The notes under the pieces: model-generated | The model's input: the letters and a program-made list of their open reading frames with translations, nothing else | What the model was told of the DNA's origin: nothing | Databases searched by the model: none | Shown here: positions 6,954-10,764 of the stretch, piece after piece | Layout of the letters: the number at the start of each line of letters is the position of its first letter | Numbering within the stretch: the first letter of the stretch is position 1 | Translations under genes and position numbers: made by a program | DNA from: Escherichia coli | GTDB lineage: Bacteria > Pseudomonadota > Gammaproteobacteria > Enterobacterales > Enterobacteriaceae | DNA length: 64,000 bases | Reading direction: 5' to 3' (one strand) | Assembly (NCBI RefSeq): GCF_003334335.1 | Contig: NZ_QOWQ01000024.1

Positions 6954-7904
6954 TTATAGTTTGGCGGCAAGAAGATCTTCCAGTTTGCGTTGATCAACGG
7001 CGAACAGACGAATGCCTTCAGACAGTTTTTCTACCGCCATCGCATCCTGATTGTGCTCCCAACGGAACTCCGCTTCGCTCATGGGAGCTGGGCGTGGGAA
7101 CGTCTGAGAAGGTGGGATTAATTTACGTACCACTGGCGAAACTTTTTCCTGCAGCTCCTTCAGTAAATTCGGTGCGATAGTCAGTCGATCGCAGCCGGTT
7201 AAGGCGAGGATTTGTTCGGTGCGACGGAAGCTCGCGCCCATCACAATGGTTTCATAGTGGTGTTGCTTATAGTAGTCGTAGATATTGCGCACCGATTTAA
7301 CGCCCGGATCTTCTTCCACCACATACGGGTCCATCGGCTTGCGTGCCTGATACCAGTCATAAATACGCCCGACAAACGGCGAAATCAGAAAAACGCCTGC
7401 TTCCGCACAGGCCCGTGCCTGTGCAAAAGAAAACAGCAGCGTCAGGTTGCAGTTAATACCTTCTTTTTCCAGCTCTTCTGCCGCGCGAATTCCTTCCCAG
7501 GTCGAAGCCAGCTTGATCAGAATGCGTGATTTCTCAACGCCTTGTTGCTGATACAAGTCCACCAGATGGCGCGCCTTCTCAATACTCTTTTCTTTATCAA
7601 AAGAGAGGCGTGCATCAACTTCTGTTGACACGCGACCGGGTACGATTTTGAGGATTTCAGCACCGAAATTGACCGCCAGTTTGTCACACGCTGCGACCAC
7701 CTGTTGTTCCTGGGTCTTGCCATTTTTTTTACCCCAGGCGATAGCATCGTCTATTAAATGCTCATATTGTGATAATCCGGCAGCTTTGAGTAACAGCGAA
7801 GGATTGGTGGTGGCATCCTGGGGATGATAATGGCGAATGGACTCAATATCGCCGCTGTCTGCCACGACAGTGGTGAACTGTTTGATGCCGTCTAACTCGT
7901 TCAT
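6954..7904 (-). CDS. talA: transaldolase A
   Basis: 316-aa [26 protein letters not shown]...; adjacent to tktB as in the talA-tktB operon. Confidence 0.95.
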
Positions 7905-8132
7905 AGGAAATACTCCTTGAAAAGTAAAGTGTTAGATGAGTGCGTTAATTCACACTTCTGAGAAATTTCGCTAAACGCATCAAAAAAGCATAGCAGACAG
8001 GCATGGTATTGCTGGATTAAGCAGGTAACATCAGTGTTATAGGATTATTACCAAAACATTATATTAATGGTGAGAGTTTGGACTTGCTCAAAGTCTGTAG
8101 ACTCCGGCAGGGTAATAATGTGCGCCACGTTG

Positions 8133-8166
8133 TGGGCAGGGGCTGTTGCCCACACACTTTATTTGT
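8133..8166 (+). promoter_or_regulatory. terminator-like hairpin (gtgggca-N7-tgcccac) plus T-rich tract in the maeB leader, 26 nt before the start codon
   Basis: Inverted repeat and following tttatttgtg seen directly; function inferred. Confidence 0.3.
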
Positions 8167-8192
8167 GAACGTTACGTGAAAGGAACAACCAA

Positions 8193-10472
8193 ATGGATGA
8201 CCAGTTAAAACAAAGTGCACTTGATTTCCATGAATTTCCAGTTCCAGGGAAAATCCAGGTTTCTCCAACCAAGCCTCTGGCAACACAGCGCGATCTGGCG
8301 CTGGCCTACTCACCAGGCGTTGCCGCACCTTGTCTTGAAATCGAAAAAGACCCGTTAAAAGCCTACAAATATACCGCCCGCGGTAACCTGGTGGCGGTGA
8401 TCTCTAACGGTACGGCGGTGCTGGGGTTAGGCAACATTGGCGCGCTGGCAGGCAAACCGGTGATGGAAGGCAAGGGCGTTCTGTTTAAGAAATTCGCCGG
8501 GATTGATGTATTTGACATTGAAGTTGACGAACTCGACCCGGACAAATTTATTGAAGTTGTCGCCGCGCTCGAACCAACCTTCGGCGGCATCAACCTCGAA
8601 GACATTAAAGCGCCAGAATGTTTCTATATTGAACAGAAACTGCGCGAGCGGATGAATATTCCGGTATTCCACGACGATCAGCACGGCACGGCAATTATCA
8701 GCACTGCCGCCATCCTCAACGGCTTGCGCGTGGTGGAGAAAAACATCTCCGACGTGCGGATGGTGGTTTCCGGCGCGGGTGCCGCAGCAATCGCCTGTAT
8801 GAACCTGCTGGTAGCGCTGGGTCTGCAAAAACATAACATCGTGGTTTGCGATTCAAAAGGCGTTATCTATCAGGGCCGTGAGCCAAACATGGCGGAAACC
8901 AAAGCCGCATATGCGGTGGTGGATGACGGCAAACGTACCCTCGATGATGTGATTGAAGGCGCGGATATTTTCCTGGGCTGTTCCGGCCCGAAAGTGCTGA
9001 CCCAGGAAATGGTGAAGAAAATGGCTCGTGCGCCAATGATCCTGGCGCTGGCGAACCCGGAACCGGAAATTCTGCCGCCGCTGGCGAAAGAAGTGCGTCC
9101 GGATGCCATCATTTGCACCGGTCGTTCTGACTATCCGAACCAGGTGAACAACGTCCTGTGCTTCCCGTTCATCTTCCGTGGCGCGCTGGACGTTGGCGCA
9201 ACCGCCATCAACGAAGAGATGAAACTGGCGGCGGTACGTGCGATTGCAGAACTCGCCCATGCGGAACAGAGCGAAGTGGTGGCTTCAGCGTATGGCGATC
9301 AGGATCTGAGCTTTGGTCCGGAATACATCATTCCAAAACCGTTTGATCCGCGCTTGATCGTTAAGATCGCTCCTGCGGTCGCTAAAGCCGCGATGGAGTC
9401 GGGCGTGGCGACTCGTCCGATTGCTGATTTCGACGTCTACATCGACAAGCTGACTGAGTTCGTTTACAAAACCAACCTGTTTATGAAGCCGATTTTCTCC
9501 CAGGCTCGCAAAGCGCCGAAGCGCGTTGTTCTGCCGGAAGGGGAAGAGGCGCGCGTTCTGCATGCCACTCAGGAACTGGTAACGCTGGGACTGGCGAAAC
9601 CGATCCTTATCGGTCGTCCGAACGTGATCGAAATGCGCATTCAGAAACTGGGCTTGCAGATCAAAGCGGGCGTTGATTTTGAGATCGTCAATAACGAATC
9701 CGATCCGCGCTTTAAAGAGTACTGGACCGAATACTTCCAGATCATGAAGCGTCGCGGCGTCACTCAGGAACAGGCGCAGCGGGCGCTGATCAGTAACCCG
9801 ACAGTGATCGGCGCGATCATGGTTCAGCGTGGGGAAGCCGATGCAATGATTTGCGGTACGGTGGGTGATTATCATGAACATTTTAGCGTGGTGAAAAATG
9901 TCTTTGGTTATCGCGATGGCGTTCACACCGCAGGTGCCATGAACGCGCTGCTGCTGCCGAGTGGTAACACCTTTATTGCCGATACATATGTTAATGATGA
10001 ACCGGATGCAGAAGAGCTGGCGGAGATCACCTTGATGGCGGCAGAAACTGTCCGTCGTTTTGGTATTGAGCCGCGCGTTGCTTTGTTGTCGCACTCCAAC
10101 TTTGGTTCTTCTGACTGCCCGTCGTCGAGCAAAATGCGTCAGGCGCTGGAACTGGTCAGGGAACGTGCACCAGAACTGATGATTGATGGTGAAATGCACG
10201 GCGATGCAGCGCTGGTGGAAGCGATTCGCAACGACCGTATGCCGGACAGCTCTTTGAAAGGTTCCGCCAATATTCTGGTGATGCCGAACATGGAAGCTGC
10301 CCGCATTAGTTACAACTTACTGCGTGTTTCCAGCTCGGAAGGTGTGACTGTCGGCCCGGTGCTGATGGGTGTGGCGAAACCGGTTCACGTGTTAACGCCG
10401 ATCGCATCGGTGCGTCGTATCGTCAACATGGTGGCGCTGGCCGTGGTAGAAGCGCAAACCCAACCGCTGTAA
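8193..10472 (+). CDS. maeB: NADP-dependent malic enzyme (malic enzyme + phosphotransacetylase-like domain)
   Basis: 759-aa [26 protein letters not shown]... Confidence 0.95.
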
Positions 10473-10514
10473 TTTTTTTTAACTCTCACGCTTACCCTGA
10501 ATATTCAGGGTAAG
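10473..10514 (+). terminator. T9 run followed by perfect 24-bp palindrome cttaccctgaat/attcagggtaag downstream of maeB
   Basis: Seen directly; atypical geometry for an intrinsic terminator (U-tract precedes the hairpin). Confidence 0.35.
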
Positions 10515-10764
10515 CAGTTTAGCTGCAATATATTAGTAAAGCTTATTACTGAGTTTGCGAATAATAAAAAAAAGCAGTCTATATAATATCTCGATATTAT
10601 TTTATTTATATTCATGCGTTGCATATGAAAGTTTATGCACCACAGCGAATATCTCTCCATTCTTAGTGATCTACCTCACCTTTTAAACGCGCTTGCCGAA
10701 TTTTGTTATTTACTCTGACGAAAAATTGTCACGATACACGAAAGTTTTTCACAGGCGGCGACTC

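Follow-up and report, generated by a model that had tools for sequence, protein, structure and literature searches.

A terminator-like stem-loop in the 5' leader of Escherichia coli maeB and its possible roles

Stem-loops that stabilize transcripts from the 5' end, as in ompA, must sit within a few nucleotides of that end. Intrinsic terminators, including those that act as attenuators in leaders, are recognized by a G+C-rich stem of about 5-14 bp closed by a loop of 3-8 nt and by a U tract that begins 0-2 nt past the base of the stem, and attenuation further implies a mutually exclusive antiterminator or another sensing element. Structures that sequester the ribosome binding site (RBS) pair the Shine-Dalgarno (SD) sequence or the start codon in the dominant fold, while conserved cis-regulatory RNAs are assigned on the basis of a curated family or a structure supported by covariation. 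Leaders bound by CsrA, such as that of glgC, carry a GGA in a hairpin together with a GGA at the SD. For E. coli, a Term-seq study was designed to find 3' ends located in 5' untranslated regions (5'UTRs) (Adams et al., 2021; PMC7815308).

The gene maeB encodes an NADPH-producing malic enzyme which is controlled by ArcA and CsrA. ArcA represses maeB directly (Park 2013; PMC3798270), a GFP reporter carrying the maeB 5'UTR is repressed by CsrA, for which a site was modelled at the SD (Leistra 2018; PMC6028588), and in csrA51 the maeB mRNA is stabilized and up-regulated (PMC4844966). The maeB sites of the biophysical CsrA model are at -13, -17/-18, -24/-25 and -76, which leaves the loop near -53 without one (PMC6028588), and the paper on EttA reports maeB as unaffected. 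The stem-loop described here lies in the maeB leader, within a window of 64,000 nt which is the whole stretch of E. coli DNA that was analysed. In this window talA and maeB are separated by a 288-bp divergent intergenic region, and over the 101 nt that precede the maeB start the sequence matches K-12 MG1655 exactly. A first-pass annotation of the window had proposed that the structure acts as a transcriptional attenuator or occludes the RBS. The features on which the analysis relies are the following:

6954-7904, minus strand: talA
8060-8065, plus strand: TATATT, likely -10 hexamer of the mapped maeB promoter, assigned from its position relative to the transcription start site (TSS)
8072, plus strand: maeB TSS (G), mapped experimentally (Kim et al., 2012), giving a 5'UTR of 121 nt
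8118-8168, plus strand: hypothetical upstream open reading frame (uORF) of 16 codons, MCATLWAGAVAHTLYL and a stop, running through the hairpin; read from the sequence, translation putative
8131-8154, plus strand: RNA stem-loop, +60 to +83 of the maeB mRNA, from folding and pair probabilities
8155-8167, plus strand: hairpin tail, a CAC spacer and then the interrupted U-run UUUAUUUGUG, read from the sequence
8180-8186, plus strand: SD region AAGGAAC, with GGA at 8182-8184
8193-10472, plus strand: maeB coding sequence, 759 aa, annotated in RefSeq as NADP-dependent oxaloacetate-decarboxylating malate dehydrogenase

The transcription start was taken from supplementary file 2 of Kim et al. (2012; PMC3415461), where the maeB record lists a single TSS at NC_000913.2 2576520, minus strand, with 611 reads and a UTR of 121 nt. 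The 51-nt upstream sequence given with that entry corresponds to window positions 8022-8072, which places the TSS at G8072, and the stem begins 59 nt downstream of it. Because this TSS lies upstream of the stem, and not downstream of the hairpin, the hairpin is transcribed at +60 to +83 and its earlier placement inside the maeB leader holds. Other genera do not share the TATATT hexamer. The conserved repeats GGTAACA..TGTTATA..(T)TGATAACAA lie at 8024-8052, immediately before the mapped promoter and partly over it; in sequence they resemble ArcA direct repeats and represent a candidate ArcA site.

Another conserved block of the leader is formed by TCAAAGT(C/T)T, 16-18 variable nucleotides and (G/C/T/A)ATA(C/A)T. 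This module is near-invariant in the maeB leaders of Enterobacterales, being present in all the Enterobacteriaceae loci compared (L001-L049) and weaker in Yersinia, Serratia and Pantoea; in E. coli it spans 8088-8119 and its 3' hexamer is AATAAT (8114-8119). Although it resembles a -10 hexamer with a non-canonical -35, the module is found at +17 to +48 of the mapped E. coli transcript and thus inside the 5'UTR, since the TSS maps to 8072. It may serve as a second promoter or bind a protein, and no supporting RNA structure was found for it. The proposal that TCAAAGTTT-N17-GATACT serves as the maeB promoter, which would bring the hairpin to the extreme 5' end of the mRNA, is overridden for E. 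coli by the TSS mapped at 8072.

The inverted repeat had been described as gtgggca-N7-tgcccac starting at 8133. Both arms are indeed present, at 8132-8138 and 8147-8153, while the start is 8132 and the gap between the arms is 8 nt. Addition of the U8131-A8154 and G8139.U8146 pairs extends the stem to 9 bp (8131-8139/8146-8154), with UGUGGGCAG as the 5' arm (8131-8139), UUGCCCACA as the 3' arm (8146-8154) and a 6-nt loop, GGGCUG (8140-8145). The isolated hairpin has a dG of -14.3 to -15.0 kcal/mol. Its tail consists of CAC and TTTATTTGTG (8155-8167), and the T-rich tract ends 26 nt before the maeB ATG (8193), as had been stated. The terminator-like hairpin reported for this leader therefore exists; it also passes a simple terminator pattern, of which it is the only match in 7850-8260.

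The exact repeat GTGGGCA-N8-TGCCCAC occurs once in the 64-kb window as compared with 0.01 expected. A 46-nt fold of the hairpin has a dG of -16.5 and a z of -1.8, with 8 of 200 shuffles equally stable, and a looser scan of both strands of the 64-kb window returned 25 raw matches, corresponding to 14 distinct sites, as compared with about 10 raw matches in block-shuffled sequence. Statistical support for the hairpin is modest. In the ensemble of the full leader (151-nt RNA, 8072-8222) the pairing probabilities of the nine stem pairs range from 0.74 to 0.99, with the hairpin as a whole forming at about 0.99; these pairs are formed only between the two arms, and the entire leader has no extra structure relative to shuffles (z = -0.68). 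The hairpin is accordingly predicted by folding to form in the transcript as a self-contained unit. Elsewhere, an 11-bp hairpin (TCGCCGCTGTC..GACAGTGGTGA, -17.8 kcal/mol) with a T-poor tail is located on the plus strand at 7849-7876, antisense to the first talA codons.

The reading favoured here, with a probability of roughly one half, is that the maeB hairpin is an Escherichia-specific passive structure of the leader, a poor terminator or none, and at most a weak pause or leaky terminator. A stable stem-loop mid-way in the 121-nt 5'UTR (+60 to +83) would fold on its own and would leave the U-rich linker and the SD/AUG downstream largely single-stranded. Its effect on elongation would be limited because the CAC spacer and the broken U-run place a G:C-rich hybrid where a terminator requires rU:dA. 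Documented control of maeB lies elsewhere, with ArcA acting on transcription and CsrA acting via the 5'UTR, where the modelled site covers the GGA of the SD, and the hairpin would probably have little or no regulatory effect. Two features speak against a passive role: the stability of the hairpin, unusual among leader structures, and the U-rich stretch behind it.

Occlusion of the RBS, one of the two functions first suggested, is contradicted by the folding predictions. The hairpin pairs only with its own arms and not with the SD, and the region 8179-8194 is mostly unpaired: in the ensemble of the 151-nt leader and early coding RNA, most of its positions have unpaired probabilities of 0.5-0.98, with values below 0.25 at five positions (8182, 8183, 8189, 8190 and G8195). 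The minimum free energy structure contains a few weak, short pairs near the SD/AUG which are absent from the centroid and none of which involves the hairpin. The end of the stem is 28 nt upstream of the GGA of the SD (8182-8184), and the SD and start codon region is predicted to stay mostly unpaired. The hairpin is thus predicted not to occlude the maeB RBS.

The best placed of the alternatives, unlikely as it is, holds that the hairpin and U-run constitute a leaky or regulated intrinsic terminator which yields transcripts ending about 90 nt past the start, with read-through depending on a factor, on NTP levels or on translation of the uORF (8118-8168). The location of the hairpin within the true 5'UTR and its match to the simple terminator pattern favour this possibility, and its stem, with 9 bp of which 5 are G-C pairs and a 6-nt loop, falls within the range of intrinsic terminators. 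The tail falls outside it, with CAC preceding UUUAUUUGUG: the 3-nt spacer and the interrupted U-run lead to a poor T-weighted tail score, 0.79 for the maeB hairpin, a level like that of intragenic or chance matches, as compared with 2.9-3.9 for the gene-end terminators of the window (same-strand ORF ends). In the terminator d-score, which follows d'Aubenton Carafa 1990 and was computed in approximate form so that its ranking alone was used, the maeB hairpin reached about -45, within the range of intragenic or chance matches in the window (-40 to -51), and gene-end terminators scored above 0. Downstream of the maeB stop codon, in 10473-10760, an intrinsic-terminator-like site was not found on either strand.

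Published 3'-end maps also speak against premature termination in the leader. Adams et al. (2021; PMC7815308) sampled LB at two densities and M63 glucose; neither maeB nor talA is listed in their four complete supplementary tables, and for these conditions no 3' end or Rho-region coordinate falls in the hairpin interval. The 3' end of maeB itself is likewise absent from these tables, which makes the sensitivity of Term-seq at this locus uncertain. No maeB entry was found in the TERMITe supplements or in those of SMRT-Cappable-seq.

Variation within E. coli bears on the same question. The K-12 allele of 8113-8172 occurs exactly in 4,254 of the 5,420 complete E. coli records, and G8136A is found exactly in 558 of them (about 10%), including Nissle 1917 and the type strain ATCC 11775. 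This substitution converts the central G8136-C8149 pair into an A.C mismatch in the middle of the stem, and is predicted to shift the fold from -15.0 to -9.1 kcal/mol with an altered structure. Such a common stem-breaking allele weighs against an attenuator and speaks against purifying selection of any strength on the stem-loop. In B2 strains the natural G8136A allele would provide a ready-made expression variant, provided that the hairpin worked as an attenuator. The same substitution also creates a GGA (UGGACA). Other changes comprise a second common allele, C8157A, which turns the CAC spacer into CAA and was present in four of six variant genomes sampled, and rare alleles with either a loop deletion plus C8150T (G.U pair retained) or a 2-nt deletion in the CACACAC spacer.

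The comparison was extended to 80 Enterobacterales maeB loci and 20 metagenomic loci. The hairpin of E. coli type is restricted to Escherichia, and two other lineages of this genus carry GTGGGCTGAGGCAGTTGCCCAC and then CATTTTTGTG or similar. Salmonella and Citrobacter possess unrelated stems of -3 to -12 kcal/mol which end 0-3 nt before a conserved T5-7 run; their presence at the same place, followed by a cleaner U5-7 run, is a point in favour of a conditional attenuator. Tested singly, these stems did no better than shuffles (p = 0.05-0.44), and Fisher's combined test, calculated by hand on six lineage representatives, gave p of about 0.08. All the Escherichia, Salmonella and Citrobacter leaders have some hairpin that ends 0-3 nt before the conserved T-run, with differing stem sequences, and one Salmonella pair displays, by eye, a compensatory change from A:U to G:C. 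The kept hairpin and the compensatory change could reflect selection for a hairpin plus U-tract.

On a broader scale, RNAalifold returned 0 consensus pairs for 34 enterobacterial leaders (from the TSS equivalent to the AUG), so that a family-wide RNA structure was rejected, and a search of 7600-8500 against Rfam gave no family match (best E-values 6.6-8.3, far below the gathering scores); the leader thus has neither the curated family nor the covariation-supported structure of a conserved cis-regulatory RNA. A conserved terminator-like site was rejected as well, as the simple terminator pattern matched 5 of 81 leaders with 3.2 expected; only two leaders, those of E. coli and S. enterica arizonae, have such a site at the homologous place. 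Conservation of the inverted repeat across enterobacterial maeB leaders, by which the first-pass annotation had suggested checking its proposal, proved negative for sequence and marginal for structure. The attenuator that it had put forward is disfavoured by the poor tail, the missing Term-seq 3' end, the stem broken in about 10% of E. coli and the lack of structural conservation; a weak or condition-specific attenuator is possible.

Regulation of such a terminator would call for an alternative pairing or another sensing device. In the E. coli leader fold no competing (antiterminator) helix occurs, and no mutually exclusive antiterminator or other sensing element was identified. A model in which the spacer of the promoter-like module pairs with the segment after ATAAT, originally picked by eye, was rejected as a general feature: over 61 distinct leaders the mean best run was 5.07, as compared with 4.79 +/- 0.135 in shuffles and 5.15 with reversed spacers, that is, at chance level, which counts against a conditional attenuator. 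In the Salmonella-like leaders L010 and L097/L103, a 9-bp helix (GCGTTGCGC : GTGCAACGC) joins the spacer before ATAAT to the 5' arm of the stem-loop in front of the T-run. G.U pairs maintain this helix in L097, and mutually exclusive pairings are seen in the Salmonella-like lineage only; competition for the 5' arm in these leaders is in line with an attenuator.

The uORF has been considered in the same context. Its TGA shares bases with the end of the T-rich tail, and its ATG arises from AATAATG. Only Escherichia, Salmonella and Citrobacter have an ATG at this start position, where the other genera have GATACT. Every Escherichia, Salmonella and Citrobacter sequence examined by eye has the ATG formed by ATAATG and an ORF of at least 10 codons, which would suit a conditional attenuator, but chance alone would yield an open frame of 10 codons in about 60% of cases (author's estimate), and the frame and length of the uORF vary even within E. 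coli. Both are broken by indels in E. coli RMDEC465 and TUM13936 and in Escherichia sp. L001. A conserved uORF peptide is ruled out by these frame-shifting indels within E. coli/Escherichia sp., and the residues past Met-Cys differ. It is very improbable that the hairpin and U-run of Escherichia, Salmonella and Citrobacter form a condition-dependent premature terminator which produces a leader RNA of about 90 nt and is overridden by translation of the uORF from the ATAATG start through the stem. If true, this would be a translation-coupled attenuator on a gene of central metabolism, missed by current Term-seq conditions.

Ranking behind the attenuator, and doubtful, is a protein-binding or mRNA stability element, either as a degenerate upstream CsrA-type hairpin, with a CsrA dimer bridging it to the GGA of the SD, or as an RNase E barrier or entry context at the U-rich linker. 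The repression of the 5'UTR reporter by CsrA and the stabilization of the maeB mRNA in csrA51 agree with such an element. The SD itself has the features of a CsrA target, namely a GGA overlapping the SD (AAAGGAAC, 8179-8186, the modelled -13 site; PMC6028588) and CsrA-dependent repression. The hairpin lacks them: the E. coli K-12 loop and its flanks, CAGGGGCUG, contain no GGA, the defining CsrA contact, the published model puts no maeB site in the loop, and the loops of Salmonella and Citrobacter (CCAGAC and similar) are also devoid of GGA.

Other genera provide the remaining support for a CsrA-type element. Of 48 other enterobacterial leaders, 18 contain a (C/U)(A/G)GGA motif 48-63 nt before the AUG, which is predicted to be unpaired in 11 of them, all the distances being 48-54 nt except that of an extra Kluyvera site. 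Sequences of the form UCAGGA/UYGGGA about 48-54 nt before the AUG are seen in many Enterobacter, Kluyvera, Kosakonia, Phytobacter and Pseudescherichia leaders (L013, L014, L017-L020, L023, L024, L030-L032, L035-L039, L041 and L044), at a nearly fixed distance from the GGA of the SD, a spacing which would suit a two-site CsrA target. The E. coli loop motif CAGGGG is placed at the same distance from the AUG (about -54), so that in E. coli the hairpin may represent the upstream CsrA site in degenerate form, without the defining GGA. Around the SD, the block CG(A/T)TACGTGAAAGGAAC, at 8170-8186 and at the corresponding position of L002-L049, shows far more conservation than an SD would require and contains a CsrA-type AAGGA; its CGATAC recurs in the upstream GCGATACT box in many genera.

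Least probable of all is a DNA-level operator, with GTGGGCA-N8-TGCCCAC bound by a dimeric transcription factor as a roadblock downstream of the start site, for which the rarity of this perfect 7-bp inverted repeat in the window and its position at +61 to +82, where repressors can act, can be adduced, but of which the half-site is not conserved outside Escherichia whereas the flanking blocks are, about 10% of E. coli genomes have a mutation in one half-site, and no regulator is named for the position in the literature searched.

Returning to the passive leader structure as the preferred reading, the main value of the analysis is a negative result, in that the hairpin would be ordinary and lineage-specific. 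A clearer map of the maeB leader was gained, with the TSS, the conserved sequence blocks, the CsrA site at the SD and the ArcA-like repeats. Should the hairpin be a working attenuator after all, it would add an RNA-level control point to a malic enzyme gene already under ArcA and CsrA.

Among the described systems, the maeB leader shares with the intrinsic terminators of leader attenuators mapped by Term-seq (PMC7815308) a G+C-rich 9-bp stem with a 6-nt loop and a U-rich stretch, located between the TSS and the start codon. It differs from them in a U tract that starts 3 nt past the stem and is interrupted (UUUAUUUGUG), in a polymorphic stem, in having no listed Term-seq 3' end and in the lack of a supported antiterminator pairing in E. 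coli. As in the 5'-terminal stabilizers of ompA type, a stable hairpin is found in the 5'UTR; unlike them, it starts at +60 of the mapped transcript, and a position near the 5' end would require use of the putative downstream promoter-like module (AATAAT, 8114-8119). Compared with CsrA-bound leaders of the glgC type, which combine a GGA hairpin with a GGA at the SD, the E. coli loop GGGCUG, in the context CAGGGGCUG, has no GGA and no modelled site, whereas the CsrA-repressed 5'UTR, the GGA of the SD and a hairpin about 28 nt upstream of it are held in common, and CAGGA occupies the place of the E. coli loop in other genera.
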